From a virus, in the IMG/VR virus record IMGVR_UViG_3300044299_001914, positions 1 through 54,742 of that record: a stretch of DNA of 54,742 nt; one strand, written 5' to 3'. Of this stretch, positions 2,948 to 52,720 are shown piece after piece; positions within the stretch are counted from its first letter, which is position 1; each line of letters starts with the position of its first letter. The position numbers and the translations under genes were made by a program. A model generated the notes under the pieces. That model was not told the origin of the DNA. It made no database searches and worked only from the letters and a program-made list of their open reading frames with translations.

Positions 2948-3442
2948 CTAAACTGCAAGAATATCGTCTGGATCTAAGATTGTGGCTATAACTTCATCAT
3001 CATTAATAATTCTACATTCAGATTCATCTCCGAGTTTGAAACGAGCACCAGCATATCTGCCAATCAATACCCATTGTTTTTCCTGACACCAAGGTTCTGC
3101 AAATTTATTTGCATCTTTATAGCAATCAGGACCCATTTTTACAACATACCCCACAACTGTAGCTAGAGATTCTCTATCTAAAGTTTGTTGTACTAAATGA
3201 ATACCACCTTCAGTTACACCTTTACCTTTGTAAGGCAGTATTAAAATACGCCAACCTGTTGGTTGTGGCATACGCTCTAAAATTGATTTGTCGAGAAGTG
3301 TAGGGTCAAGAACACGTGCCTCTTGTGACACATATGGTAATTCTTGACTAACTTCCTCTTTTGTTTCCTCTTGTTTTACTGCAGCTTCTTCTGCTTCTAT
3401 TTCTTTGGCTATATGTTCAGGAACCTGTATCTTCGATGTCAT
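2948..3442 (-). CDS. GroES/Cpn10-like protein with acidic N-terminal extension (164 aa)
   Basis: C-terminal ~100 aa aligns by eye with GroES: WRILILP..GVTEGGIHL..ATVVGYVVKMGP..WVLIGRYAGARFKL..CRIINDDEVIATI versus RVIVKR..SAGGIVL..GEVLAVGNG..DIVIF..EVLIMSESDILAIV. Confidence 0.6.
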   Translation of the reverse strand: MTSKIQVPEHIAKEIEAEEAAVKQEETKEEVSQELPYVSQEARVLDPTLLDKSILERMPQPTGWRILILPYKGKGVTEGGIHLVQQTLDRESLATVVGYVVKMGPDCYKDANKFAEPWCQEKQWVLIGRYAGARFKLGDESECRIINDDEVIATILDPDDILAV

Positions 3443-16639: not shown

Positions 16640-17389
16640 TTAATCATTTTGCATACAAAAAATGCCACATTCAAAATTATAACTTTTAAGATCACGGCCT
16701 TTTGCGTCAACTGGTAGATCTTGCAACATTATTCTTTCACCCTTATAACGAACTAGCTTTGCACCTAACTTATTAGATGTCTTAACTCTTTGCTCAAAAA
16801 CACTTGGAAAAGTTTTTCTTACTAGATTCCAATATGTAGGTGAAGTTGCTTTTACACACCCAACACAGTTAGCGTTAGGAAAACCCAATGCATAGATCTC
16901 TGGCAGTTTTATACCTTCCTGCAACAAAATATCAAAACATCCCTGCTTTGTTATGCCCTCATCTATTAAAACAGGCAAAAGATTGTCTCCTTGCGTCTCT
17001 TTAAATTTAGCAGCCCGTTTCTTTTCATCAAAAGTAAAACCAAGAACAATATAATCGGTGTCATGGCGTAGTTCCCAATATCTTCTAGCGTTCTTTTTTA
17101 AATGTAAAGTGCATGGCGCACCAAAATTACTCGACATAAAAGCTGTTTTTTGCCAAACAGTCTCACAAGATTGATCTGGAAACTTAGGATTAATAGCATA
17201 TTCTATTTTCACACCTAGCCATTTCTCAACATCTTTTAAGAACCTTCTATTATCTTTATGTTCTTCCCTAATAGGATTGTTGACAACTCTGATTGTGTTG
17301 TCTTGACCATACAACTCTATGGTTTTCTTAGCTGCCACAGCACTTGCAGCACCACAGCTAAACCAGACAGTTATGATTTTACCTTTCAT
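16640..17389 (-). CDS. PAPS-reductase-like PP-loop ATP pyrophosphatase family protein (249 aa)
   Basis: N-terminal KIITVWFSCGAASAVAAK in the position of the PP-loop SGGxDS motif. C-terminal Cys cluster NANCVGCVK ... ECGIFC. ATGA overlap with the methyltransferase gene. Confidence 0.6.
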   Translation of the reverse strand: MKGKIITVWFSCGAASAVAAKKTIELYGQDNTIRVVNNPIREEHKDNRRFLKDVEKWLGVKIEYAINPKFPDQSCETVWQKTAFMSSNFGAPCTLHLKKNARRYWELRHDTDYIVLGFTFDEKKRAAKFKETQGDNLLPVLIDEGITKQGCFDILLQEGIKLPEIYALGFPNANCVGCVKATSPTYWNLVRKTFPSVFEQRVKTSNKLGAKLVRYKGERIMLQDLPVDAKGRDLKSYNFECGIFCMQND

Positions 17390-19173
17390 GCCATATTTTT
17401 ATAAATATGCTTAATCACCTCTACTGTCCAGCCGTTGCCTAACATCTTATAGCGCTGCGTGTTAGACACCTGATTTGTGTAATTATCTGGAACTGTCTGT
17501 AATCTTTCACATTCCAAAGGTGTAAGCTTACGCCATGTAAGATCTTCATGTTGCACACCTGTAGCATGAAATGTGCCTTGCCTTTCAAAGTTTGCTCTTG
17601 ATGATTTAAAGTATTGCGACTTTATTGTTTGTGATTTATCTGGTAATTTTTTAACCACCACACTGTCTTTGCCAACTGTTGTTATAGCATTTGATTTACT
17701 ATCTTGTCTAAGTTCAAGCATTTGTTTTGTTTTATTTGCTACCGATACGCCATCTTTATCCATGCGCTTACCGTCTTTATCGTAAGCTCTACCACGAAAA
17801 GCACCGCCAGTTACTACTTTTGGCTCTCTATTACCACCTTGACAGGTATTGACCGTTGGCGACTTACCATCTGGACTATACACTCGTTTGAGTATGTCAT
17901 GACCATTTATGTCTACTGCAACGCCTACTTGTTGTGGCTTAGTTTCTATCATTTGCTCTTTGTTTGATGCAGTAAGTGTAGGTGATTTACCTTGATCGCT
18001 ATAAACCCTTTGTGTGCTTTCATATACACCATCTCTGTATTCAAACTCCATGATCTGTTTATCAAACACGCTTGATGTAAACCCAAGAACTTCTTTGAGC
18101 TTAAACCATATATTATCACTTGGTATAGCAAAACTACTATCAGTCCTGAACCAATGCTCTACTTTAGTGATTGGCATATTTGTTTCATCTGCAATTTGTT
18201 TATTAGTTTTTTTACTATTTTTCTTATAAGCACGTAGAGCTTGTTGTAACAACAAAATATCAACCTCATGCTTCCTAACTTTTACTTCTTCTACATTCAT
18301 GCCTACTTTAATTGGTTTAGTTTGTTTTATTGCTTTATCATTTACCCACATGTTGCCATTGCTACTATTTGTTCTTAATGTAGTTGACTTATTGCCTTTT
18401 ATAGTTTTTTTATTGTAAGGATCATTAAAATCTGCGTTTACATCTTCAACATATTTTTTAACTGATTCTGCGGAAATGTATTCTTTAGTTGGCTTATTGA
18501 CTAACTGTCTTCTATGTTTCTTCTTGTATTGTTCAACACTTGCACCTTTGTAATAATTTGCATCTATACAATGTGCTTTATTTCTTTCACTCTCAAAGTT
18601 ATCTTCCAATATATCCCTCAACACTATACCCCTATCCTCTGGTTGCTTAATACCTGGTATATTAGTCCAATAGTATCTCTGCCTTGACTGAGCGCTAAGA
18701 AGAGAACTGTTTATGAAGATGGGCTCAAACCTTACTTCACCTAAAACATTTAGAAATTGATTATCAACATCTTCTGGCTTATAACACTGTGAAACTTGCT
18801 CTGTTATTATCTCTAAAAACTCTTTTTTCATTCTTACATTTTCAAGTAAAAAATATTTTGGCTTTATGTCTTTTAGTAAACGGATGAACTCAAAAAACAA
18901 TGCAGATCTAGGATCATCAAAAGCAAGCTGCTTACCTGCAAAACTAAATCCTTGGCATGGCGAACCAGCTTGTATTAAGTCTACATCTTTATAATCTTCT
19001 GCATTTAGATTGCATACATCCCCGACTTGTATAGTATTTGGATAGTTAGCCTGTGTAACCTTAATAGCATATTTATCAATCTCACTTGCGTAGTATTTCT
19101 CAACTGGTATGCCTAGTTGATCCAGTGCAATCTGGCCGCAGCTCATACCATCAAATAAACTTAATACTTTCAT
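17386..19173 (-). CDS. DNA (cytosine-5)-methyltransferase with a very large variable region (595 aa)
   Basis: C5-MTase motifs: I LSLFDGMSCG, IV GSPCQGFSFAGK, VI FLLENV, then after ~350 aa IX-like ERLQTVPDNYT and X MLGNGWTV. Confidence 0.85.
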   Translation of the reverse strand: MKVLSLFDGMSCGQIALDQLGIPVEKYYASEIDKYAIKVTQANYPNTIQVGDVCNLNAEDYKDVDLIQAGSPCQGFSFAGKQLAFDDPRSALFFEFIRLLKDIKPKYFLLENVRMKKEFLEIITEQVSQCYKPEDVDNQFLNVLGEVRFEPIFINSSLLSAQSRQRYYWTNIPGIKQPEDRGIVLRDILEDNFESERNKAHCIDANYYKGASVEQYKKKHRRQLVNKPTKEYISAESVKKYVEDVNADFNDPYNKKTIKGNKSTTLRTNSSNGNMWVNDKAIKQTKPIKVGMNVEEVKVRKHEVDILLLQQALRAYKKNSKKTNKQIADETNMPITKVEHWFRTDSSFAIPSDNIWFKLKEVLGFTSSVFDKQIMEFEYRDGVYESTQRVYSDQGKSPTLTASNKEQMIETKPQQVGVAVDINGHDILKRVYSPDGKSPTVNTCQGGNREPKVVTGGAFRGRAYDKDGKRMDKDGVSVANKTKQMLELRQDSKSNAITTVGKDSVVVKKLPDKSQTIKSQYFKSSRANFERQGTFHATGVQHEDLTWRKLTPLECERLQTVPDNYTNQVSNTQRYKMLGNGWTVEVIKHIYKNMA

Positions 19174-33301: not shown

Positions 33302-34009
33302 TCATTCCTCGTTACATGTTAACCAAAATACCAAAAGGTATCTATCTCCTGATTCTACTGCTAGCCCTCTATGCATATGCGTAAAACTAGGAAAAATTAG
33401 AGCGTGGCCTGTAGGTAATGGCTCGACTGTACCACGTTTTAAAAACTCAGTTCCGCCACCTTTGTACTCCCCCGTGTTCAAAGGAACTACCATACTTATA
33501 TCAGCACTTGCATCATGATGCCAAGCACCTTGTTTTTTATCCTTTAAATTATAATTAGCTATTTGGATTCCGCCCCCATCTACATGCCTATTCCAAATAT
33601 TTAAAAATATAGGATTTCCAATAGTATATATCGTTTGCATTAAAGATTGAAATATTTGTGGACAATTATCTTGAAACGTTATTTCTGGTATTTGTCGTAG
33701 ATCATCCTCTTCTGGGTTAGGATTAAAGCCAAAATGTGTTTCCAAATGTTTCATTTCATCCATTAATATCTGACAAAACTTCTCTGAAAAAAAAGGCACG
33801 GTGTAAACATCCTTTAATGGTTCTTCTATAATTTTGTCTAAAGGTGTTGATTTTGGCGACTTTGTGCCACTTTCTTGGTAAAAATCTACTATTGGGTTTA
33901 TAGAGTCTTTTACTGCAGCAAAAGTTTCTTTGTTTATATACCAATCACTTGGATAGGTGAGTAGTAGGTTTTTTGGTTGATAAATAAGGTTTTCAGCTAC
34001 GTTTATCAT
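33302..34009 (-). CDS. 2OG-Fe(II) oxygenase (prolyl-4-hydroxylase-like)
   Basis: Facial-triad-like WHHDASAD (HxD) ... FPSFTHMHRG (distal His) ... GDRYLLVFW (Arg/Lys for 2OG), the standard P4H/2OG-FeII_Oxy layout. Confidence 0.7.
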   Translation of the reverse strand: MINVAENLIYQPKNLLLTYPSDWYINKETFAAVKDSINPIVDFYQESGTKSPKSTPLDKIIEEPLKDVYTVPFFSEKFCQILMDEMKHLETHFGFNPNPEEDDLRQIPEITFQDNCPQIFQSLMQTIYTIGNPIFLNIWNRHVDGGGIQIANYNLKDKKQGAWHHDASADISMVVPLNTGEYKGGGTEFLKRGTVEPLPTGHALIFPSFTHMHRGLAVESGDRYLLVFWLTCNEE

Positions 34010-34332: not shown

Positions 34333-36227
34333 CTTTTACCATCTGGTTTTATGTCTATCCTCGTGGCTCCTAATCTCCATCCTATTGATAAATTACCATT
34401 GTTAGATGCATCGTCATCAGATTCAAAACGCAAAGCTATTTGTCTTGAACGACTACGCACAAAGACTTGTTGAGTTGTTGCTGATATGGCATTTGTAGAA
34501 TTTGTGGTAAGAGAGTCGCCTGGAAAGTTTCTTGTTTTCAAAACAATGTTTACATTACCGTTGTTATCATCTTGTATAAATTTGTAATCTGGTATTATTC
34601 TTTTCAAAAAGCTAAATTGGTCGCCATCACCTATATCCATATCAGAGCTTTCTATAAACACATTTGTCATAGGAGATCCATCATCATCAAAACCTATTTC
34701 CTGTTTAAATAGATAACTGTTACCAACTGCTCTCGGATAATTTTCTATGCCAGAATCAAGCCAAGCTGTTCTAACTAATTGCCCATAAAACCATAAATTT
34801 TCTACATAATTATAGATTACATATCTATCTATTTCACTAGATGAGCTTGAACAATAGAACCACCCTATTTCACTTTTATCTTTTATGGTGAAAGCATGTA
34901 TTTTAAAAGATTGTGATAGGTTAATATCGTTAAAAACATAGTTATGCACTGAACAAGGTAAGGTTTGCACAGATCCGTTGTAGACATAAAAATTGTTGTA
35001 GCTCATCCAAAAAACGCCACTAGGGGCTGTTGTAGCAGCTTTTGGCCCTATAAGACCAGTTCCTTCGTTGATAAGGTTTATACCAAAAGTAAAGGGCGGC
35101 CCTATGAACTGCATACTGTAAAGAGCAGTATCTGTCCAAATTAAAGTTTCTTGTCTTGCTTTAACACCACCAATAATCGAAGAGCCGCTTGACAACCTCA
35201 ATGAACCTGCAGTGTTCGTTGTCAAGGGCTCAAAATCTAACTCATTTTCTTGATCACTAAAAGCCACTAACATAGGATCTATCGTCCCTGTTCTGGAGGA
35301 TCCAGATATAGGATCTGCACCTAAAACAATCAAATGTCTATCTTTTTCTGATGTTAAGACTTGTAATGCTTTTGTTGGCACTAAATTTGCACCAGATATA
35401 GCTGAAAGTTCAACAGCTCTTGTCGATAAACCACCAGATTCTAGCCATCTAAAAATACCACCGTTTCTCTGATTTATAATCAAATTTTCACCAAAGTTGT
35501 CATGTGTCCATAAACGCAATTGGTTTGTGTCTGATAAAGTTGCAGCTTGTCCAAACGCTCCTATACCCCATCCATTAGCACCCCAACCTGTACTAGGCAT
35601 ATAAATATCTAAACCAACATTAACTTGATATGTACCAACGACTGAAGAACCACCATTACCGCTATCAGAAGAGTTAGCCGTAACTGTTGTTCCGTCAGTG
35701 TCTTTTGCTTCAATTGTATAACTGTTTGTGTTAACTATGGTAGCTATTTGATACTCTTGATTAAGAACTGTAGCTGTAATATTGCCACCAAGCGAAGATG
35801 CACCACTAAAAGTCACAAAATCATTCTTCACTGCACCATGAGCAGTATCGGTCACTGTAATCGTAGCATCGCCATTACTAGCAGAAAAAGTCACATCACC
35901 TGCCGATGTGGTTAATCTAATCGGTGTGATATCATTAAAAGACCCACCTGACTCTATGTAATACTTAAGATGGCTACCTAATCCTAGGTATTTAGCTCCC
36001 TCTAATGATATCCAAGGATGTAATGCTCTTACTGTGCCTAAGTATGTATTAGATGTAAGTTTCTCCCAACCTCCAAACTTTTCTGGCCTACCTTTACGAA
36101 ACCTAACTAAATTACAGTCAAACCAACCGCCTTCATTATCATATGCGGTGCCCTCTCTATTTATTCCTGGTCTAAATGTAATCTTTTGTAAAGGCATATT
36201 AGATGTGATGCCACTCTTTGCCTTCAA
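34329..36227 (-). CDS. Putative tail / host-interaction structural protein (632 aa)
   Basis: Large beta-rich S/T/G/N ORF immediately downstream of the endolysin gene in the late operon. No enzymatic motif. Confidence 0.45.
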   Translation of the reverse strand: MKAKSGITSNMPLQKITFRPGINREGTAYDNEGGWFDCNLVRFRKGRPEKFGGWEKLTSNTYLGTVRALHPWISLEGAKYLGLGSHLKYYIESGGSFNDITPIRLTTSAGDVTFSASNGDATITVTDTAHGAVKNDFVTFSGASSLGGNITATVLNQEYQIATIVNTNSYTIEAKDTDGTTVTANSSDSGNGGSSVVGTYQVNVGLDIYMPSTGWGANGWGIGAFGQAATLSDTNQLRLWTHDNFGENLIINQRNGGIFRWLESGGLSTRAVELSAISGANLVPTKALQVLTSEKDRHLIVLGADPISGSSRTGTIDPMLVAFSDQENELDFEPLTTNTAGSLRLSSGSSIIGGVKARQETLIWTDTALYSMQFIGPPFTFGINLINEGTGLIGPKAATTAPSGVFWMSYNNFYVYNGSVQTLPCSVHNYVFNDINLSQSFKIHAFTIKDKSEIGWFYCSSSSSEIDRYVIYNYVENLWFYGQLVRTAWLDSGIENYPRAVGNSYLFKQEIGFDDDGSPMTNVFIESSDMDIGDGDQFSFLKRIIPDYKFIQDDNNGNVNIVLKTRNFPGDSLTTNSTNAISATTQQVFVRSRSRQIALRFESDDDASNNGNLSIGWRLGATRIDIKPDGKR

Positions 36228-36642
36228 ACAACAAAGACTCTGCTAGTCTTCTGCGCTCTAACCCCTCTAAAACTTTTCCGTTTGCTTTGTTCCATCTACG
36301 CATTTGATGTGGAGCTTCTTCTTTCTTGTTTTCATTTAATACTTTCAGCAGAGTGCTATTGTTTAGATTTGTTGGCCCCAAATTATAAGTCCATGCAACC
36401 AAAGCATCAAACTCATTTTGCGATAATGGTACATGAACTGCATTACTTACATAAGCACCATATACAGGAAGCTCTTCGTGTAACCACTCATCAGCTTGCT
36501 CCTGTGTACAAGTATCACCTTTTTTTACATTTTTAGTTCTACCGTATCCTATAGTCCAAACACCTGCACTGCATTTGTATGCCTCTAGCTCACACCCTTC
36601 AAATTTTTTTATTAAACTTGTGCCTTCTTGTGAAATTTGCAT
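36199..36642 (-). CDS. Endolysin, GH24 lysozyme (147 aa from the internal Met; the ORF extends to 36693)
   Basis: LIKKFEGCELEAYKCSAGVWTIGYGRT is the GH24 catalytic N-terminus. GAGGAGGAG lies 5 nt upstream of the ATG at 36642, which abuts the o-spanin stop. Confidence 0.85.
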   Translation of the reverse strand: MQISQEGTSLIKKFEGCELEAYKCSAGVWTIGYGRTKNVKKGDTCTQEQADEWLHEELPVYGAYVSNAVHVPLSQNEFDALVAWTYNLGPTNLNNSTLLKVLNENKKEEAPHQMRRWNKANGKVLEGLERRRLAESLLFEGKEWHHI

Positions 36643-36643
36643 A

Positions 36644-37027
36644 TTACTCCTCCTCTTTTGTCGTAGTAACTTCCCTATAATACACAACAACATCTTTTAA
36701 TTCACTTATATAGCGTTTAATTTCTTGCATGTTATATGCCATAACTTCGTAATCTGGCACTGTCATAGCTAGAAAAACAAGCTCTCCTTCTTGATTTTCT
36801 ATTATTGCAAACTGTTCTTCAAAATTTTCGGGTGTAATAGTAAGCCATCTAACCTCTCTAAGAGATATTTCTCTTGGCATAACTGGTTGTACAATTACCC
36901 TTTCTAAGGGTTTTGCGGTAACTTCTATTTGTTTAGTTGGAATCAGGCTGCAACTGCAAGCCATCATCAAGATCATCAACAGTGATGCTGATTTGCTCGA
37001 TATCTTCCATAATGTGTTTTGTACCAT
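36644..37027 (-). CDS. o-spanin (outer-membrane lipoprotein; 127 aa)
   Basis: Signal peptide with lipobox LMMAC|S. The gene starts inside the 3' end of the i-spanin gene (95-nt overlap), an overlapped spanin architecture next to the endolysin. Confidence 0.65.
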   Translation of the reverse strand: MVQNTLWKISSKSASLLMILMMACSCSLIPTKQIEVTAKPLERVIVQPVMPREISLREVRWLTITPENFEEQFAIIENQEGELVFLAMTVPDYEVMAYNMQEIKRYISELKDVVVYYREVTTTKEEE

Positions 37028-37331
37028 TATTTATCTTCCTTTGCATTTCAACTGGATCAGCTATGATTTTTGCACTTAACTGATAGTTTTGTATAAATTC
37101 TGTGTATCTTAACAACTCTCTTTGTGCTGCTTGACTTTTTTTTGATAACTCACTCATTTGTTGTGTTTGCAAGTCAAAATCGTTTTGTAGCGCTGTGATT
37201 GCTTCTTCTTGCGTTGCTATTGCACCCTCTAGCGCCTGATTATTTGCACTTAAAACCTTATTTTGATTGTATAAATAATAAGATGTAAAGCCTAAGGTAA
37301 GTATGATTGCTAATAAAAATTGTTGCATCAA
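36933..37331 (-). CDS. i-spanin (132 aa)
   Basis: N-terminal TM helix FLLAIILTLGFTSYYLY followed by Q/E/L-rich coiled coil, upstream of the o-spanin and endolysin. Confidence 0.65.
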   Translation of the reverse strand: MMQQFLLAIILTLGFTSYYLYNQNKVLSANNQALEGAIATQEEAITALQNDFDLQTQQMSELSKKSQAAQRELLRYTEFIQNYQLSAKIIADPVEMQRKINNGTKHIMEDIEQISITVDDLDDGLQLQPDSN

Positions 37332-37555
37332 GCGTCCTCAATAATGTAATTTAAGCCAGAAACACTTCTATACTCTACCACTTTGTCATTTACATCTCTA
37401 AACTTAAGATGTTTTTCTTTTTGTATTATTATTTTTTTTGAAATGTATGTTTTATCGTCTGAATCTCCATATTCTTTGTTGAAGGACACAGTAATTTTGT
37501 ACCTAGTAGAAAAATACTCACAGATCCAAATATATAATTTTTTAAAGTATTGCAT
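37328..37555 (-). CDS. Hypothetical protein (75 aa)
   Basis: ORF with an ATGA overlap to the i-spanin gene. Confidence 0.5.
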   Translation of the reverse strand: MQYFKKLYIWICEYFSTRYKITVSFNKEYGDSDDKTYISKKIIIQKEKHLKFRDVNDKVVEYRSVSGLNYIIEDA

Positions 37556-37734
37556 TATACAAATTTAGATAAAACTATAGATACTAAGATAAAAGGGTAG
37601 ACAGCCCATATCATGTTTTCTAATTTATCAAAACGTGCTGACCCATCTTCTAATCTTTGTTCTATATTTTTGTATCTTATAGAACATTCTTTTTCATGTG
37701 TTTCTATTTTGTTTAGTGCTTCTTGCGTACTCAT
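37555..37734 (-). CDS. Small tail-anchored membrane protein (59 aa; below the ORF-track cutoff)
   Basis: Hand translation gives MSTQEALNKIETHEKECSIRYKNIEQRLEDGSARFDKLENMIWAVYPFILVSIVLSKFV. ATGA overlap with the cyclase stop and TAATG overlap with the next gene. Confidence 0.5.
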   Translation of the reverse strand: MSTQEALNKIETHEKECSIRYKNIEQRLEDGSARFDKLENMIWAVYPFILVSIVLSKFV

Positions 37735-39479
37735 CTTGTTGTATAAATTGCTAAAGAGTGTTTTTTCCCTTTTACTTTTATTGGTTTTAATAATTTTAAC
37801 TCAAAACTACAAGATTTTTTAGTGTTATGACCTATTATTATGTCCACACCCACATCTTTGGTAGCACTTTCAAGTCTTGCTGCAGTATTTACTGCATCTC
37901 CTATTGCACTATAATCAAAACGTGTTTCACTACCCATATTACCTATTATGGCTTCTCCAGAATTTATGCCTATACCTATGTCTATTCCTAAATTGGATTG
38001 CTCCATGTCTGCCTTTATTTTCTGCGCTGCTAGTATGGCTTTATTCTCATGATCTTGTAGGTCTATTGGTGCGTTAAAAATAGCCATCATTGCATCACCT
38101 ATATATTTATCAACCATACCCCCATACTCTTTCACTGCATCTGCTTGTATTGTTAGGGCTTTGTTCATAATTCTAGTAACTTCTTCTGGCTCTAGCTTTT
38201 CTGATAAACTTGTAAAGCCTCGTACATCTGTAAATAAAAAGGTGCAATACTTTCTTTCACCACCTAGCTTTAGTAAGTTTGGAGTTTTTTGCAAAATTGC
38301 CACTTGTCTCGGGTCAAGATAGTGCTCAAACTGTTTTTTTATCTGTTGTCTAAGTTTGTATTGTTCTCTGAAGCGTAAATAGAAAGCAGTAGATCCTGCA
38401 ATGAATTGTGATATTAACGACCATGTTACATCTATAAGAAGGCTTTTTTGTATCAAATAATAGCCTAAAGTGCCCGTAGAGAGCATAATTGTTAAACCTA
38501 ATGTAATACCTAGGGTTATACCAAAACGGATTAATACAAGCCAAATTAGAGTCACTGTGAGCAAATATATTAGTATCTCAACGGCTAAAGAGTAATCAGG
38601 TATGTATGGACTATCTTGTATTAGAATTGATTCTGCTAAGGCTGCCTGTATTTTATGTGGCTCTAACAGACCAACAGGCGTAGCAATTTGTGGCATGACA
38701 CCTGCAGCAGTAACTCCAATTACAACAAATCTACCATTTACATCCATCTCCTCAAGATCTGTTTGTGGCGTGTCTACCCAACTTATCCATTTACGACCTA
38801 GACTATCTGTTTTGACTGGCGGTATGCCTCTTATTGATATTTCTTGTATACCATTATCATTGGTTTTTATAATGTAAGTTTTTATGCCAAACAAAGATTT
38901 ATAGATCTGTGTGCCAAAACTAGGTATCCAATCGTTATTAGGAGTTCGTACAAGCAATGGTATTCTTCTGACGAGCTGATCTATGTCAGTGGGAGCAATG
39001 GCCAAACCTTCGTATGAGTTTTGAGTAAGTAGAAGCAGGTTCTCCTTTACTCCCGTAGTCATTATACCACCTTTATCTTCACCTACAACAACAGTTCCAG
39101 GTGTTGACGGGTACACACCTTTGCCGTCTTCAAACATAGCAATGACTGAAGGTGCGTATCCCAATGATCTACCAAAGTCTTCATCTCCACCCATTCTGTC
39201 AGGCTGTGGAAAAGATATTGCCCAACCAACTCCAACAGCACCACGACCTAAAATTTCTAGGTTGATTTCTGCTAATCTTTGTCGTGGCAACGGCCAACCA
39301 CCTTCTTGTTCAACATTATCTTCAGTAATATTAAGAATCACAAAATTACCTGATGGGTCATAGTTTTTGACTAAAGCATCAAATGTTCTAAGTTTTATAA
39401 TTTCGGTTGGTGTGCTTTGAAATATAAGAGGTAGTGATAATAGTAATAACAAAGATAAATAAATTTTATATTTCATCAA
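37731..39479 (-). CDS. CHASE2-domain membrane sensor fused to a class III adenylate cyclase (582 aa)
   Basis: Signal/TM, ~280-aa extracytoplasmic region, then a 3-TM block (LAVEILIYLLTV...FIAGSTAFYL). The cyclase core is FLFTDVRGFT, VDKYIGDAMMAIF, GINSGEAIIGNMG, FDYSAIGDAVNTAARLES. Confidence 0.85.
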   Translation of the reverse strand: MMKYKIYLSLLLLLSLPLIFQSTPTEIIKLRTFDALVKNYDPSGNFVILNITEDNVEQEGGWPLPRQRLAEINLEILGRGAVGVGWAISFPQPDRMGGDEDFGRSLGYAPSVIAMFEDGKGVYPSTPGTVVVGEDKGGIMTTGVKENLLLLTQNSYEGLAIAPTDIDQLVRRIPLLVRTPNNDWIPSFGTQIYKSLFGIKTYIIKTNDNGIQEISIRGIPPVKTDSLGRKWISWVDTPQTDLEEMDVNGRFVVIGVTAAGVMPQIATPVGLLEPHKIQAALAESILIQDSPYIPDYSLAVEILIYLLTVTLIWLVLIRFGITLGITLGLTIMLSTGTLGYYLIQKSLLIDVTWSLISQFIAGSTAFYLRFREQYKLRQQIKKQFEHYLDPRQVAILQKTPNLLKLGGERKYCTFLFTDVRGFTSLSEKLEPEEVTRIMNKALTIQADAVKEYGGMVDKYIGDAMMAIFNAPIDLQDHENKAILAAQKIKADMEQSNLGIDIGIGINSGEAIIGNMGSETRFDYSAIGDAVNTAARLESATKDVGVDIIIGHNTKKSCSFELKLLKPIKVKGKKHSLAIYTTR

Positions 39480-40639
39480 CCACTCTGTTTTATCGTAATA
39501 ACACTACTGCTACCACCATTAATCTTGATAGTCTTTGAAACACCATCTTGAATTAAAATTACGGTGTAACTTGCAGATACATCTAAATCTAGTCTAGCAG
39601 TGTTATTTACAGATCTTATTAGGGTAAATCTATCGCCATCTATAAAAGAAATTATCTGAGTTTCTGTATCTTGACCAAACTTAGTTCCTGCTATGGCAAC
39701 TGATGTAACATCTTGTTGTAACTGATCCTCTTCTTCAGCAATCTCTAAAGCATCTAAAACATCTAATAAATCTTCAAGAAAATTTACATCAAGGTAATTT
39801 ATGTCTAATTCTGTAAACTCTAGATCTGCCTCATTGTCTAAAAAGTCCTCATCTAAATAATCTATATCTAAGTCATTAAAATCTAAAAAATCATTTGTAT
39901 TAAGAATAACTTCTTCAGCTTGCATTTCTACTGGCTCTGGCGGACTTACAATAAGCATGTTGTCAATAATATCTAAAGTTAGATCTAAAATTACTGGCTT
40001 ACTAGGTGCACTTTCAAATACGCTAACTGTAGTAGCTTGAAAAGGTTGATTTAGTATGACGCTGCCCGTTGCAGTGGTTACCTCTATTTCTCCACTGGAA
40101 AGACCAAGTGCATCTGGTAGCAATATTATTAGGGATGCTCCTAACTCATTTACTGTGGTTGTAAAGTCAGTGCCACGAATGGCTATATTCGCTGTGGGTG
40201 TTTTTAACGAGATGTTTTGTTTATCTATTCTATTTAAGTTACCTGTTATAAATCTTGTGGTACCTAGCGCAAAGGTAAGCGCCATCTTTGATTTAGATGG
40301 ATCTGGGTCATAAATATATTCGTCTATTACAAGTTGTGAGTGTTCTGTAAGTTTTACTTGGCTATCATCGAGAAAAGTTATAGCCATGCGCCCATTGTTA
40401 GTAATGGCCTCATCGTTATTTTGTATTACAAAATCTATACTAGCGTCATAAGGTATATCTCTTACAACGCTAGCTGAACCAGAAAGTTCAGAGATGTCAC
40501 CAATGTTAACAGCTTGTGCTTGTACCTTGGTCGTTTTGGATAACGCAAATATTGCTATTAGAAGTGTTGCTAATAATCTTAAGGTAATCCCTTGCCAAAG
40601 TAGAAGATTGTGTAACATCAATCGTGTTTGAACTGCCAT
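39476..40639 (-). CDS. Secreted FecR-domain protein with an acidic D/L-repeat linker (387 aa)
   Basis: Signal peptide LRLLATLLIAIFALSKTTKVQAQA. FecR-like SGSASVVRD..NNDEAITNNGRMAITFLDDSQVKLTEHSQLVIDEY. ATGA overlap with the cyclase gene. Confidence 0.7.
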   Translation of the reverse strand: MAVQTRLMLHNLLLWQGITLRLLATLLIAIFALSKTTKVQAQAVNIGDISELSGSASVVRDIPYDASIDFVIQNNDEAITNNGRMAITFLDDSQVKLTEHSQLVIDEYIYDPDPSKSKMALTFALGTTRFITGNLNRIDKQNISLKTPTANIAIRGTDFTTTVNELGASLIILLPDALGLSSGEIEVTTATGSVILNQPFQATTVSVFESAPSKPVILDLTLDIIDNMLIVSPPEPVEMQAEEVILNTNDFLDFNDLDIDYLDEDFLDNEADLEFTELDINYLDVNFLEDLLDVLDALEIAEEEDQLQQDVTSVAIAGTKFGQDTETQIISFIDGDRFTLIRSVNNTARLDLDVSASYTVILIQDGVSKTIKINGGSSSVITIKQSG

Positions 40640-41231
40640 CTAAATCAAGATAAAAATAACCACTGTCAGCAGATGTGGTGCCACCGTACCCGCTACCACT
40701 AAAATTTAATGTATTACTGCTACCATTTACATCGACATAGTTGATTGCATTTGCATAATCTATATCAAAATCAAACTCATTACTGCCACCAGTAACAATC
40801 CAATCTAGATCAAGATAAGACGCATCATCATCCTCAGCCACTGCTAAATCAAAGGTGTTACTTGATCCAGTGACATTTATATTCATATTAATATAATCTG
40901 AGTCAATAAGGCCTGTGCTATCTACAAGTATGTCAAAGACATTACTGTCACCTGTAAATTCAAAAAAGCCTGTAAAATTATCACCATCAATAGCATCAGA
41001 TCTAAATTTATTACTTGCACCTATTTGGTTTATGTCAAGTATCATTGACACACCATCAAGATCTAATGCAGTCATAGTGCCAGATGTAGCACTTGTACCA
41101 CCAATAAGGTTAGATCCACCTTGTTGCTCTAAATCTATGGTTGCAGAGTTTCCAGTTTGGTTTACATAAATTTCATTGTCCGCAACAACAGAAAGAGACA
41201 TAAATAAAAAAATGTTAATTAGTTTCTTCAT
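40506..41231 (-). CDS. Secreted curlin-like repeat protein (241 aa)
   Basis: Sec signal MKKLINIFLFMSLSVVA. VNQTGNSATIDLEQQGGSN fits the curlin Q-x-G-x-x-N-x-A-x3-Q pattern. About 8 degenerate xxGxSNxFDxxV repeats follow. Adjacent to csgG/csgF. Confidence 0.6.
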   Translation of the reverse strand: MKKLINIFLFMSLSVVADNEIYVNQTGNSATIDLEQQGGSNLIGGTSATSGTMTALDLDGVSMILDINQIGASNKFRSDAIDGDNFTGFFEFTGDSNVFDILVDSTGLIDSDYINMNINVTGSSNTFDLAVAEDDDASYLDLDWIVTGGSNEFDFDIDYANAINYVDVNGSSNTLNFSGSGYGGTTSADSGYFYLDLDGSSNTIDVTQSSTLARDYLKIISNTSNSNICVIQNDQGTSTSC

Positions 41232-42036
41232 ATTTCCAATACCCTCTTGTATTTCCTACGTTTATTATTTCTAAGACTGCACCTTCTATAGCTTTCATTA
41301 AAGCTATGGTTGTGCTTTCGTTGCGGGTGGCACCCGTTTCTATTTCAACCAACTCTGTGCCCATCTCTATGAATCTGAACACATCTTGAGATTGGCCATA
41401 ACTATAGATAGTTTTTTGTGACATGACCTCAATCAAAATTTCACCTGTAGCTACTGATACCATACGCAGACTAACACTTACGCTATCTTCTCGGTACTGC
41501 AAACTAGAGCCTATGCCCAAATATCTTGCGCCTAGTCCACCTGTAACTAAGTTACTATCATACGATACAACTGCACCTTCAAGCAAGACACCAGCAAAAA
41601 GCAGCGGCCCTAGAGCCTGGCTTTCACCAAGTTGTTCTCTTGTAGATCTAATTAGTTGTCTTTCTTTTGTAAGGTTATCAAGACCAACTCTCTCTACAAC
41701 ACGAAAGAAATTACCATTTGATGCATGTTTTAAAGACCTAATTAAAAGCGTGTGTGGTGCTTGTGTGATTGCAGATGAAAATAAAGCAAACTCACTATTG
41801 CTTTTTCTTTGTCCTGTTTGATCTGTAAAGGCAGTAGGATACACAGCAACGACAGGTTTGACTGCGGGAGCTGGTATATATGCTAGTTCGTCAGACTGCA
41901 ACGAATAAATACTATAATCGTGTAATCCTTTACTTTGGTATCTATCTGGTCTTGTATCTTTTACAACTTCTAGTATTGAACAACTAGAAAGAGAAATCAC
42001 CAAGAGGCAGTTCAATAGTCGTGGTAGAACCGTCAT
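41215..42036 (-). CDS. csgG: CsgG-family outer-membrane curli secretion channel lipoprotein (273 aa)
   Basis: Lipobox LVISLSSC|S. VAVYPTAFTDQTGQRKSN...FSSAITQAPHTLLIRSLKHASNGNFFRVVERVGLDNLTKERQLIRS matches the conserved CsgG core. Confidence 0.8.
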   Translation of the reverse strand: MTVLPRLLNCLLVISLSSCSILEVVKDTRPDRYQSKGLHDYSIYSLQSDELAYIPAPAVKPVVAVYPTAFTDQTGQRKSNSEFALFSSAITQAPHTLLIRSLKHASNGNFFRVVERVGLDNLTKERQLIRSTREQLGESQALGPLLFAGVLLEGAVVSYDSNLVTGGLGARYLGIGSSLQYREDSVSVSLRMVSVATGEILIEVMSQKTIYSYGQSQDVFRFIEMGTELVEIETGATRNESTTIALMKAIEGAVLEIINVGNTRGYWKYEETN

Positions 42037-42472
42037 TTGAGTTAAAAATAGTAAGAATTATCATACCGTCTTCAATCTTGTAAGATATTATATTACCTTC
42101 AAGTTCAAACGTGCCTTCAGTAGATTGTGTTTCGCCAAACATATTTTCTACAATCTGTCTGGATATTTGTGCGTAGATACGGCTTTCTAAGTTTCTAATA
42201 AATCTTGCAAGAGTTGTGTTCTCAGCATCTCTTTCTAATTCTTCTTGTAAAGCTTTGATCTCCTCTTTTATAGTCATCTTACGCATATGTTCTTGGTTTT
42301 CTATTGTTAAGTAATGAGAGCTGGTATTGATGCCACTAAAAGATGGAGACTTAAATTTAAAAGTTATAGTATCTGCTTGTGCACTTTGTATGAAGCCAAA
42401 AGTAAAAAGCATCATGCCGCACAAAATACTAAGTGCGTATAAATTATCTTTGTTTTTTTCTTTTTGCATCAT
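41984..42472 (-). CDS. csgF: CsgF-family curli assembly component (162 aa)
   Basis: Signal peptide ending SAQA, then the mature N-terminus TFKFKSPSFSGINTSS, which matches the CsgF F-x-F-x-N/S-P-x-F-G-G constriction motif. Adjacent to csgG. Confidence 0.7.
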   Translation of the reverse strand: MMQKEKNKDNLYALSILCGMMLFTFGFIQSAQADTITFKFKSPSFSGINTSSHYLTIENQEHMRKMTIKEEIKALQEELERDAENTTLARFIRNLESRIYAQISRQIVENMFGETQSTEGTFELEGNIISYKIEDGMIILTIFNSNDGSTTTIELPLGDFSF

Positions 42473-42701
42473 CTTGTTCTTTAAGTTTCACTACTGTATC
42501 AACTTTCTCTTTTAATCGTATCATATCTTGATCCAATAGGCGAAGTTGATCTGTTAACCTTATTATGGTCGTTTTCATTTCACTTACTGATGGATCTATA
42601 GTTTTAGTGATGGTTTGCCATACATAAAAAACAAAATATCCTAACCCTATAACCATAACAGTTGGAAAGCCAAACTTTTGCACCAGTACAACTATATCCA
42701 T
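42444..42701 (-). CDS. Membrane protein, N-terminal TM plus coiled coil (85 aa); holin/antiholin-class candidate
   Basis: GFPTVMVIGLGYFVFYVW TM helix, then a heptad-like region and a basic tail. Paralogous in architecture to the upstream gene. Confidence 0.4.
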   Translation of the reverse strand: MDIVVLVQKFGFPTVMVIGLGYFVFYVWQTITKTIDPSVSEMKTTIIRLTDQLRLLDQDMIRLKEKVDTVVKLKEQDDAKRKKQR

Positions 42702-42997
42702 TAGTCACGCCTTGCGTCTATCTTGCCATCTTCTACAAAATTCTCTGCTCTAGCAATCCTATCAAGATCTGGTGGTATGTTAAGTGCACTAGAAACCACA
42801 GTATCTATTCTAATAATATCGTTGTTCATTATAGAAGCACGGGTAATAAGCATTTTGGTAATGCCTTGCACTGACTGTATATCTGAAACAAGGTTGTTCA
42901 TAAGCTGTCTTATGATTAAAAATATGAAATAGCCCATAATCAAACCACTAGCTATTGGTAGTCCTACCTCGCTTATCAAGCTTATAGCTTGATTCAT
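42701..42997 (-). CDS. Membrane protein, N-terminal TM plus coiled coil (98 aa); holin/antiholin-class candidate
   Basis: GLPIASGLIMGYFIFLII TM helix, aligned by eye with the TM of 42444..42701. 1-nt overlaps on both sides. Confidence 0.4.
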   Translation of the reverse strand: MNQAISLISEVGLPIASGLIMGYFIFLIIRQLMNNLVSDIQSVQGITKMLITRASIMNNDIIRIDTVVSSALNIPPDLDRIARAENFVEDGKIDARRD

Positions 42998-43383
42998 TAT
43001 TTATCTTCGCCTTTGAAACTCTTAGATGCGCCAGATGTACCTGCATAAAGACCAAACCAAGCTGCACCTGCACCAACAATAATTGATATAAGTCCAGATT
43101 GTTCAAATGTAGGGCTCTCTAGTGCCATAAACCACATTGTTGAATAGTAGAGTAAAAATATATAAACGCTTAAAAATGCACGTGGAAATATTCTCCATGC
43201 ATCAACTGCTTGTGCTAAATGAATCCACTTTTGATGTGGATTAACATTGCTTACATCCTCAAGTTCTCTTATTTTATCTTTTAGATCAGAAATTTCTCGC
43301 ATCATATCCATGAACTTGTTAAGGTCCATTTCGACTTCGTTTCTATCCATATCTCCGCTAAATTGTCCTGGATTCATATTCAT
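42997..43383 (-). CDS. Multi-TM small membrane protein, holin candidate (128 aa from the TAATG-coupled start; the ORF opens at 43398)
   Basis: C-terminal half has 2-3 hydrophobic helices (AFLSVYIFLLYYSTMWFMAL, LISIIVGAGAAWFGLYAG) and a charged tail. Confidence 0.45.
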   Translation of the reverse strand: MNMNPGQFSGDMDRNEVEMDLNKFMDMMREISDLKDKIRELEDVSNVNPHQKWIHLAQAVDAWRIFPRAFLSVYIFLLYYSTMWFMALESPTFEQSGLISIIVGAGAAWFGLYAGTSGASKSFKGEDK

Positions 43384-43763
43384 TAGTAATCTCCCCAAAC
43401 TTTGGTTTTTTTGCCACCGTCATAAGCAACTGCATGGCCTTCTTTAATTAATATTTGACAAATATCTTTGCCGTCATCTGTATAAGGTATGCCTAGTATA
43501 CGGCCATATTTACCTTTACCCAATGATTTTACTTTTATATGCCCTGTGCAAAGTTCTTTTAATCGAGCTTTTGCAGCCAAACCTAGTACTTTTTCAGCTT
43601 TATCTCTAGTTCTTGATTCTGGTGTATCAATGCCTGCTAGTCTCACTCTTTGTTTATGAAGCTTTACATCAAACCCAAGATCAAGACAACAATCAAAAGT
43701 GTCTCCATCAACTATTCTTTCTAGAATTGCATTATAAACAAATGCATCAGGTGCTTTAGGCAT
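43383..43763 (-). CDS. Staphylococcal-nuclease-like (SNase/thermonuclease fold) nuclease (126 aa)
   Basis: VERIVDGDTFDC...QRVRLAGIDTPESRT...GKYGRILG matches the SNase Ca-binding and catalytic motifs (DGDT, R-L-x-GID-PE). Confidence 0.75.
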   Translation of the reverse strand: MPKAPDAFVYNAILERIVDGDTFDCCLDLGFDVKLHKQRVRLAGIDTPESRTRDKAEKVLGLAAKARLKELCTGHIKVKSLGKGKYGRILGIPYTDDGKDICQILIKEGHAVAYDGGKKTKVWGDY

Positions 43764-52069: not shown

Positions 52070-52392
52070 TACCTTAGTCTATCTGACATGACAGCACCTT
52101 GGCCTCTAATACTTACGAAGCCACCCTTAGCCTTTTTTTTCCTTTTTTTACTGCCTTTTGCATAATTAGGATCTTTACAATACTTCGATGCAGCCATATT
52201 TGCATATGCTGAAGGGTATGTATCAAAAGTTCTTTTTGCCCAAGCTTTGCCCTCTGGGCAAATTTTGCCTCCACTTTTAACTTTACCTCCCTTTTTCATT
52301 TTAAGAGTTTGTAATGTTTTTGCTTGTTTTGCATGCGTTTTGCTTGCTTTTTGCAGACCCTTAATAACTTTTTTTAATTTTTGTTTAGCCAT
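52069..52392 (-). CDS. Lys-rich basic protein with YPSAYAN motif and C-terminal KGGFV.IRGQGAV (107 aa)
   Basis: CPEGKAWAKRTFDTYPSAYANMAASKYCK flanked by K-rich segments. Confidence 0.55.
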   Translation of the reverse strand: MAKQKLKKVIKGLQKASKTHAKQAKTLQTLKMKKGGKVKSGGKICPEGKAWAKRTFDTYPSAYANMAASKYCKDPNYAKGSKKRKKKAKGGFVSIRGQGAVMSDRLR

Positions 52393-52720
52393 AATTTAAC
52401 TCGTCTAAATGATAGTTTAGCGTAAGCTCCTCGCCAACACTAATTTTTTTTGATGTAATTACATTAAAAACTCTATAGTCGTCCCAGTCTAATTCTTCGC
52501 TAAGGTAACAATTTGAATCTTCTGAGTGATTTAAAAAGCCCCCTATGGATGTTCTTACATAACCTTTTATAATAGGAACTTTTATATGTGACATACCTAA
52601 ATCAAAATCTTTGTCAATATTATCTACCGCAAACAGTCCATATCCTTCTATAGGGCTTTTTTGAACTTCAATACAATCTGGTAATGGTTTGTAATAAAAT
52701 TTATTATAAACAGGATACAT
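52385..52720 (-). CDS. Minimal SET-domain protein lysine methyltransferase (vSET-like, 111 aa)
   Basis: KSPIEGYGLFA (GxG), GGFLNHSEDSNC (NHS..N), VGEELTLNY (ELxxxY). Aligns by eye along its whole length with the 119-aa chlorovirus PBCV-1 vSET. Confidence 0.8.
   Translation of the reverse strand: MYPVYNKFYYKPLPDCIEVQKSPIEGYGLFAVDNIDKDFDLGMSHIKVPIIKGYVRTSIGGFLNHSEDSNCYLSEELDWDDYRVFNVITSKKISVGEELTLNYHLDELNYG

Follow-up and report, generated by a model that had tools for sequence, protein, structure and literature searches.

The IMG/VR virus record IMGVR_UViG_3300044299_001914, analysed here over its whole length of 54,742 nucleotides (nt) and referred to below as the window, encodes on its minus strand a receptor-like protein made up of a CHASE2 sensor, transmembrane (TM) helices and a nucleotidyl cyclase domain (positions 37731–39476; 581 residues from the ATG at 39476–39474). 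The best prediction from its sequence, which we consider probable, is that this protein is an active, homodimeric, cyclic AMP (cAMP)-forming receptor cyclase of the class IIIb type. An initial annotation of the cyclase domain had also predicted an active homodimeric cAMP-forming enzyme, from six canonical class III residues including a Lys/Asp pair that specifies ATP. That prediction still appears to be the best reading, on different grounds: the base-specifying pair is Lys458/Ser524, which is class IIIb-like.

The cyclase open reading frame (ORF) is real. The ORF finder placed its start at a TTG at 39479, one codon 5' of the ATG (ORF 37731–39479, minus strand), and residue numbers in this text follow the resulting 582-residue numbering, counted from the TTG. 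The exact 581-residue product was found on 42 public contigs, of which the window is the longest, and carries the JGI name 'adenylate cyclase'. The initially annotated feature corresponds to the last 190 codons of the ORF. The motifs quoted for it (FLFTDVRGFT, VDKYIGD/YIGDAMMA, RFDYSAIGD and GDAVNTAARLES) are all present, between residues 414 and 538, and the class III nucleotidyl cyclase catalytic domain matched by Pfam PF00211 (37758–38249, minus strand, residues 411–574; E 1.4e-19; score 70.8 bits, curated cutoff 21.9) falls within that feature. Among solved structures the top match reached an E value of 5.7e-33, indicating that the match is not due to chance.

To place the catalytic residues, the protein was aligned to Rv1625c of Mycobacterium tuberculosis alone, and again together with bPAC, Cya2, CyaB of Pseudomonas aeruginosa (PaCyaB) and the cyclases of the myophages HTVC008M and Melnitz. 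The Rv1625c catalytic-region reference was 100% identical to PDB 4p2m across 213 residues. The metal-binding Asp418 (38226–38228; in FTDVRGFT, and invariant in homologues) aligned with D256 of Rv1625c, the substrate-specifying Lys458 (38106–38108) with K296, the metal-binding Asp462 (38094–38096) with D300, and the transition-state Asn531 and Arg535 of NTAAR (37875–37889) with N372 and R376, all on the minus strand. The two metal-binding Asp residues and the transition-state Asn/Arg are thus in canonical class III positions. The Asp365 position of Rv1625c, at which an Asp is expected for class IIIa, was occupied by Ser524 (codon AGT, 37908–37910, minus strand); class IIIb enzymes have Thr there. 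From the GS motif to the GDAVN (GDxVN) block the alignment with Rv1625c contains no gap, and in each protein the specificity residue precedes the Asn by seven positions. Of the two Asp residues of RFDYSAIGD, from which the initial annotation had taken its substrate Asp, D522 aligned with F363, and D528 fell on D368, within the conserved GDxVN; neither can therefore be the substrate Asp. In HMMER alignments, Ser524 stood opposite Thr in PaCyaB (MDYTIIG) and bPAC (MDHTLLG), and opposite Gly in the guanylate cyclase Cya2. Five of the six residues initially listed (D418, D462, K458, N531 and R535) therefore held, and the proposed Lys/Asp pair gave way to Lys458/Ser524. The correction bears on experiment design, because the target for mutagenesis is Ser524 and not an Asp.

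The pairing of Lys with a hydroxyl residue was also found throughout the family. Among the 120 closest homologues (73–94% identity), the six positions read D-K-D-[S/T]-N-R apart from one N-to-T exception and one fragment, and the specificity site was Ser in 84 and Thr in 36. When about 150 representatives of 50%-identity clusters were compared, 134 showed DKD-S-NR (90) or DKD-T-NR (44) and four showed DKD-D-SR; the specificity site of this set was Ser in 96 and Thr in 47, and Lys occupied the position of Lys458 in 148 of the 154 cyclase domains that were aligned. The D-K-D-[S/T]-N-R pattern was present in 81 of 81 cyclases from 80 IMG/VR viral loci, with free alternation between Thr (43) and Ser (38), and in 82 of 83 sequences of the bacterial-locus alignment (Ser 52, Thr 30); all 80 bacterial CHASE2 cyclases taken from genomes had Lys together with Ser or Thr. 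By these alignments, Lys plus Ser/Thr is the norm of the family. A minority clade, consisting of the Melnitz cyclase (locus L002, 6917–8968) and four cluster representatives (P0152, P0158, P0162 and P0163), has Asp at the specificity site. In all five of these DKD-D-SR cyclases the transition-state Asn is replaced by Ser (GDSVSTAAR in Melnitz), and the two differences look like a coupled substitution.

One defining mark of class IIIb is a Thr where the substrate-binding Asp would otherwise stand (PMC2613629). Searches of the PDB with phmmer ranked the class IIIb enzymes Cya2, PaCyaB, bPAC, OaPAC and CyaC (E 5.7e-33 to 1e-19) above every class IIIa enzyme; Rv1625c was matched with an E value of about 1e-10 and the mammalian transmembrane adenylate cyclase with one of about 1e-4. 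As judged from sequence, the enzyme is class IIIb-like and not Rv1625c-like (class IIIa), with the Lys of the class IIIb pair kept and with Ser in place of the literally defining Thr, a residue found in 36 of the 120 closest homologues and in 43 of the 81 viral relatives. Ser may be an accepted variant of the class IIIb pair.

The cyclase domain is preceded by the usual elements of a CHASE2 receptor. A hydrophobic N-terminal helix (residues 2–24, from hydropathy) is followed by a predicted periplasmic CHASE2 sensor (38559–39440, minus strand, residues 14–307), which matched Pfam PF05226 with an E value of 6.7e-24 (85.3 bits against a cutoff of 26.3) over profile positions 4–253 of 257. Membrane-spanning helices and then a helical linker follow (38355–38594, minus strand, residues ~296–375), with a hydropathy peak at residues 296–334 and helices at 295–318, 320–344 and 352–387 in an AlphaFold (AF2) model. 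CHASE2 thus lies between an N-terminal TM helix and a C-terminal set of TM helices, a cyclase forms the output domain, and the topology would be that of the usual CHASE2 receptor, with the sensor facing outward and the catalytic domain in the cytoplasm. The AF2 run was made on the full-length monomer with a shallow alignment of 30 sequences. Its cyclase part was informative, with a predicted local distance difference test (pLDDT) score of 75–95. Foldseek comparison of this part with CyaC and PaCyaB gave template modelling scores of 0.79–0.80 and root-mean-square deviations of 2.4–2.5 Å, and the scores over the solved class IIIb set (CyaC, PaCyaB, bPAC, OaPAC and Cya2) ranged from 0.72 to 0.80.

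Comparison with the closest viral relative (synonymous divergence, dS, of 0.6) gave a ratio of nonsynonymous to synonymous substitution rates (dN/dS) of 0.05, equal in the CHASE2, TM and cyclase parts, indicating that the whole receptor is maintained by selection. The catalytic positions all hold functional residues, which are conserved across hundreds of phage copies. ATP is the predicted substrate because the residue at 458 is Lys, where guanylate cyclases have Glu (as in DEFMGD of Cya2), and homodimerization would be obligatory because each chain has only one catalytic domain. Two chains would pair head-to-tail and form two symmetric active sites. In each site, Asp418 and Asp462 of one subunit would hold two divalent metals, and the other subunit would contribute Lys458 and Ser524, which would read the adenine, and Asn531 and Arg535, which would stabilise the transition state; the products would be cAMP and pyrophosphate. 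A response to inorganic carbon (CO2/bicarbonate) has been reported for enzymes of class IIIb. The FecR-domain protein encoded immediately upstream would be the likely partner of CHASE2 in the periplasm. We infer enzyme activity, ATP preference, topology, gating by CHASE2/FecR and any downstream effect from these comparisons.

Several observations weigh against this prediction. Our literature search returned no verifiable published assay of a class III cyclase with a Lys/Ser pair, as opposed to Lys/Thr, and no enzyme assay of the window protein or of any phage homologue. The CHASE2 part of the AF2 model had pLDDT values below 50 and was unusable, and the loop that carries Ser524 (residues 514–524) was of low confidence in the monomer model. 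The window protein is without the C-terminal extension of about 80 residues that is common to most bacterial homologues. Pfam scans of essentially all window ORFs of at least 100 residues revealed no cyclic nucleotide (cNMP)-binding or Crp-like protein that could receive the signal. The host is presumed to be of the SAR11 type, from phage relatedness only. A phmmer search of the window with E. coli CRP as query, which is a weak test, likewise found no CRP relative, and from the literature nothing usable emerged about cAMP signalling of SAR11 bacteria.

The window is the genome of a phage, a marine podophage, with genes for a portal protein, the large terminase (TerL), the major head protein (MCP), a primase, a tail fibre and a lysozyme. 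Its structural proteins are distantly related to those of the Pelagibacter podophages HTVC023P and HTVC027P and of phage 023Pt_psg01; when 15 kb around the cyclase gene was compared with GenBank phages by megablast no match was obtained, and relatives were found only by protein-level searches. The cyclase gene is the last of a colinear CsgF-CsgG-curlin-FecR-cyclase series on one strand, the arrangement of the pelagiphage curli module. In transcriptional order, and all on the minus strand, the series comprises CsgF (41984–42472; Pfam PF10614, E 2.7e-19), the curli secretion pore CsgG (41215–42036; Pfam PF03783, E 1.9e-47, an NCBIfam match and a lipoprotein-like N-terminus), a curlin-like repeat protein analogous to CsgA/B (40506–41231; a signal peptide and about five repeats containing G-[GS]-S-N) and a FecR-domain protein with an N-terminal signal or anchor (39476–40639; Pfam PF04773, E 2.1e-9; phrog_37870, E 2e-70). 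Export signals are present in all four proteins. The curlin-like protein gave a weak NCBIfam CsgB match and is homologous to the 'curlin' genes of HTVC008M and Melnitz. The FecR ORF shares 134 nt with the end of the curlin gene, and translation of FecR therefore probably begins downstream of position 40639. The FecR stop codon overlaps the ATG of the cyclase gene as TGATG, and the two genes are translationally coupled. In the FecR protein a strongly acidic, repetitive segment, DFLDFNDLDIDYLDEDFLDNEADLEFTELDINYLDVNFLEDLLDVLD (residues ~250–305), separates the FecR domain from a C-terminal one.

Three small TM/coiled-coil ORFs (85, 98 and 133 residues; 42444–43398, minus strand) lie upstream of CsgF, and the 98-residue ORF is kept in 29 of 29 related loci with enough flanking sequence. 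In the published module a histidine kinase (HK) always precedes CsgF (PMC9599517). The three ORFs before CsgF in the window (85–133 residues) gave no Pfam kinase or HisKA/HATPase match, and they may be what PMC9599517 calls 'HK'. Downstream of the cyclase (36199–37555, minus strand) are a 75-residue ORF, a TM and coiled-coil ORF that we take, from sequence features, to be i-spanin-like, an overlapping lipoprotein-like ORF that would be o-spanin-like, and a phage lysozyme gene (Pfam PF00959, E 4.5e-47). The order of the module did not vary: it was shared by HTVC008M, Melnitz and all 29 IMG/VR viral loci with sufficient flanking sequence. In the podophage lineage (IMG/VR loci L083–L162) the module always lay between the small TM ORFs and the spanin-like/lysozyme genes, and its surroundings there (36199–43398 in the window) look like a lysis region; in HTVC008M and Melnitz it adjoins replication and baseplate genes, not lysis genes. 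A scan of IMG/VR yielded at least 600 matching stretches, and 587 of the 600 listed encode a relative of the cyclase. Other accessory genes of the window encode a SET-domain protein (52385–52720), a Cpn10/GroES-like protein (2948–3442), a PAPS-reductase-like protein (16640–17389), a large DNA methyltransferase (17386–19173), a 2OG-Fe(II) oxygenase (33302–34009) and a staphylococcal-nuclease-like protein (43383–43763).

The closest cellular homologues of the cyclase, with 25–35% identity, were mostly from Alphaproteobacteria. An iterated search found a FecR-like ORF within 8 kb of the cyclase in 23 of 80 bacterial loci, directly upstream and on the same strand in about 14 of them; neither CsgG nor CsgF was ever near the cyclase in these 80 loci. 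In accord with this arrangement, a cluster of CHASE2-cyclase, FecR, TPR and phosphodiesterase genes has been described in Campylobacterota (PMC9239204), and in S. meliloti the FecR-domain gene smc02177 adjoins smc02178, near cyaD1 (PMC5498481). As judged from gene neighbourhoods, FecR plus CHASE2-cyclase is an ancestral signalling pair inherited from (alpha)proteobacteria, which makes FecR the likely partner of CHASE2, and the joining of this pair to curli genes appears to be phage-specific. One bacterial locus, from Sinorhizobium sp. 6-70 (L069), has a FecR-TPR fusion immediately before the CHASE2-cyclase. We considered whether it is the cyaD1-clr locus, which would have linked Lys/Ser to a proven cyclase, and rejected this, because the locus has another FecR-TPR/CHASE2-cyclase pair and lacks a Crp gene next to it. 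A 181-residue ORF divergent from this gene pair (2604–3149 of L069, minus strand) matched Pfam PycTM with an E value of 9.5e-11; no similar ORF was present in the other 79 bacterial loci, in the 80 viral loci or in the window. Bacterial CHASE2 cyclases carry a conserved extension after the catalytic domain, with a median length of 81 residues in the 80 bacterial loci. The window protein and the HTVC008M cyclase stop right after the catalytic domain, and the Melnitz cyclase keeps a long tail.

Four other accounts of the protein were weighed against an active cAMP-forming class IIIb-type receptor. That it is a class IIIa, Rv1625c-like cyclase with ATP specificity from a Lys/Asp pair is extremely improbable, and the sequence itself already refutes it: although Lys458 is in place and RFDYSAIGD supplies two Asp residues close to the specificity site, Ser524 fills the D365 position in the ungapped alignment, the pairings of D522 and D528 with F363 and D368 leave no substrate Asp, and D522 recurs in PaCyaB (MDYT) and bPAC (MDHT), in which Thr occupies the Asp365 position. 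The Ser or Thr of all 80 bacterial relatives, and the far weaker match to Rv1625c than to class IIIb enzymes, argue in the same direction. An active enzyme whose main product is not cAMP, and which instead makes cyclic GMP (cGMP), a pyrimidine cNMP as does PycC of Pycsar, or a mixture, seems unlikely. The top PADLOC match was indeed the PycC model (96.6 bits, E 4e-28), and Ser, being smaller than Thr or Asp, might loosen base selection. The same model, however, gave 104.5 bits for PaCyaB, 86 for a Cya2 derivative, 77 for bPAC and 53 for Rv1625c; we rejected a PycC identity because the match does not discriminate, known adenylate cyclases scoring as high or higher. The Lys that guanylate cyclases replace by Glu is nearly invariant here, and the S. 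meliloti CHASE2 cyclases that have been studied act through cAMP. Among the window ORFs of at least 100 residues we found no Pycsar-type effector (cNMP-binding or PycTM domain), and none beside the cyclase combined a cNMP-binding domain with a TM or TIR segment.

A degenerate, non-catalytic domain, which would limit the protein to sensing at the membrane or to anchoring the curli module, is very unlikely. The absence of the bacterial C-terminal extension and the loss of the transition-state Asn in some Melnitz-type phage relatives would fit such a scaffold, but the catalytic positions are functional and invariant across hundreds of phage copies, and the dN/dS of the cyclase part is as low as that of the sensor. 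The last account concerns the role of the enzyme and not its chemistry: an active cyclase would belong to lysis-timing circuitry and report envelope state or superinfection, instead of regulating curli or host transcription. We regard this as unlikely. It draws on the constant position of the podophage module between small TM ORFs and spanin-like/lysozyme genes, and on the proposal of Buchholz et al. (PMC9004378) that the phage CsgGF pore has a role in lysis timing; its basis is synteny alone, and the location of the HTVC008M and Melnitz modules beside replication and baseplate genes argues against it. A broader suggestion, which we hold to be similarly improbable, is that the FecR/CHASE2 pair is a phage-borne envelope sensor that would read the periplasmic state brought about by the phage's own curli pore and fibres, or an external cue such as cell contact or superinfection, and would answer with a pulse of cAMP to time lysis or to reprogram a host without its own curli system. 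The position of the module between small membrane ORFs and spanin/lysozyme genes is consistent with an envelope sensor and does not demonstrate it. If it were true, the virus would import a complete circuit from sensor to second messenger.

An active CHASE2-gated adenylate cyclase had initially been considered unusual in a phage, a view at odds with the record: homologues are annotated in HTVC008M and Melnitz, the exact protein is public, and the CsgF-CsgG-CsgA/B-FecR-AC module, in which AC is the adenylate cyclase, has been described in HTVC023P-type podophages and pelagimyophages by Wittmers et al. (2022, PMC9599517). These authors named FecR and adenylate cyclase as additions absent from bacterial curli operons, and reported that the curli proteins of viruses, and the FecR that accompanies them, occurred at every one of the 65 GOV2.0 stations (PMC9599517); CHASE2 and the catalytic residues are not mentioned in their paper. 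The marine-phage cyclase is already published and annotated, and the novelty of the present finding is low. What the analysis adds is modest: the Lys/Ser correction, purifying selection on the sensor, membrane and catalytic parts, and the bacterial ancestry of the FecR-CHASE2 pair. A receptor cyclase brought by a virus could give a streamlined host a signalling input that it lacks, an idea that the literature already contains, though with no analysis at the level of residues.

Among solved enzymes, the best matches in both sequence and structure were of class IIIb, namely Spirulina CyaC (1wc0/1wc1), P. aeruginosa CyaB (3r5g), bPAC (5m27), OaPAC (4yus) and Synechocystis Cya2 (2w01). The window protein shares with them the FxDxRGFT and DK[FY][IVM]GD motifs and a hydroxyl residue at the position equivalent to Asp365. 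It differs in having Ser where those enzymes have Thr (Cya2 has Glu/Gly), and in its sensor, which is CHASE2 and not MASE2, BLUF or others. With the class IIIa enzyme Rv1625c it has in common the fold, the two metal-binding Asp residues, the Lys, the Asn and the Arg, whereas Ser stands in the place of Asp365, similarity is much lower (E ~1e-10, 24% identity) and the membrane anchor is a different one.

The bacterial CHASE2 cyclases, including CyaD1, CyaD2 and CyaK of S. meliloti and the Campylobacterota cluster, resemble the window protein in architecture, in having a FecR-domain neighbour and, in all 80 relatives examined, in the Lys plus Ser/Thr pair. The three S. meliloti enzymes drive a cAMP/Clr cascade, and CyaD1 without CHASE2 gives constitutive cAMP (PMC5498481); their output is thus cAMP, and CHASE2 acts as a negative gate. 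In bacteria the Crp-type receptor Clr is known, whereas none was found among the window ORFs of at least 100 residues. The C-terminal extension of about 80 residues belongs to the bacterial proteins, and curli genes were found near the phage cyclase only.

The nearest counterparts among described systems are the modules of the HTVC023P-type podophages (PMC9599517), of Pelagibacter phage HTVC008M (gp AGE60353) and of Methylophilales phage Melnitz (gp104), which agree with the window in gene order and in the CHASE2 plus cyclase architecture. In HTVC008M and Melnitz the last gene of the module is annotated as an adenylate/guanylate cyclase, and the HTVC008M enzyme likewise reads D-K-D-S-N-R at the six catalytic positions. 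The window cyclase is nevertheless only 31–34% identical to the proteins of these two cultured myophages, and the window has no second curlin gene between FecR and the cyclase. The Melnitz enzyme differs further, with Asp at the specificity site, Ser for Asn and a C-terminal extension.

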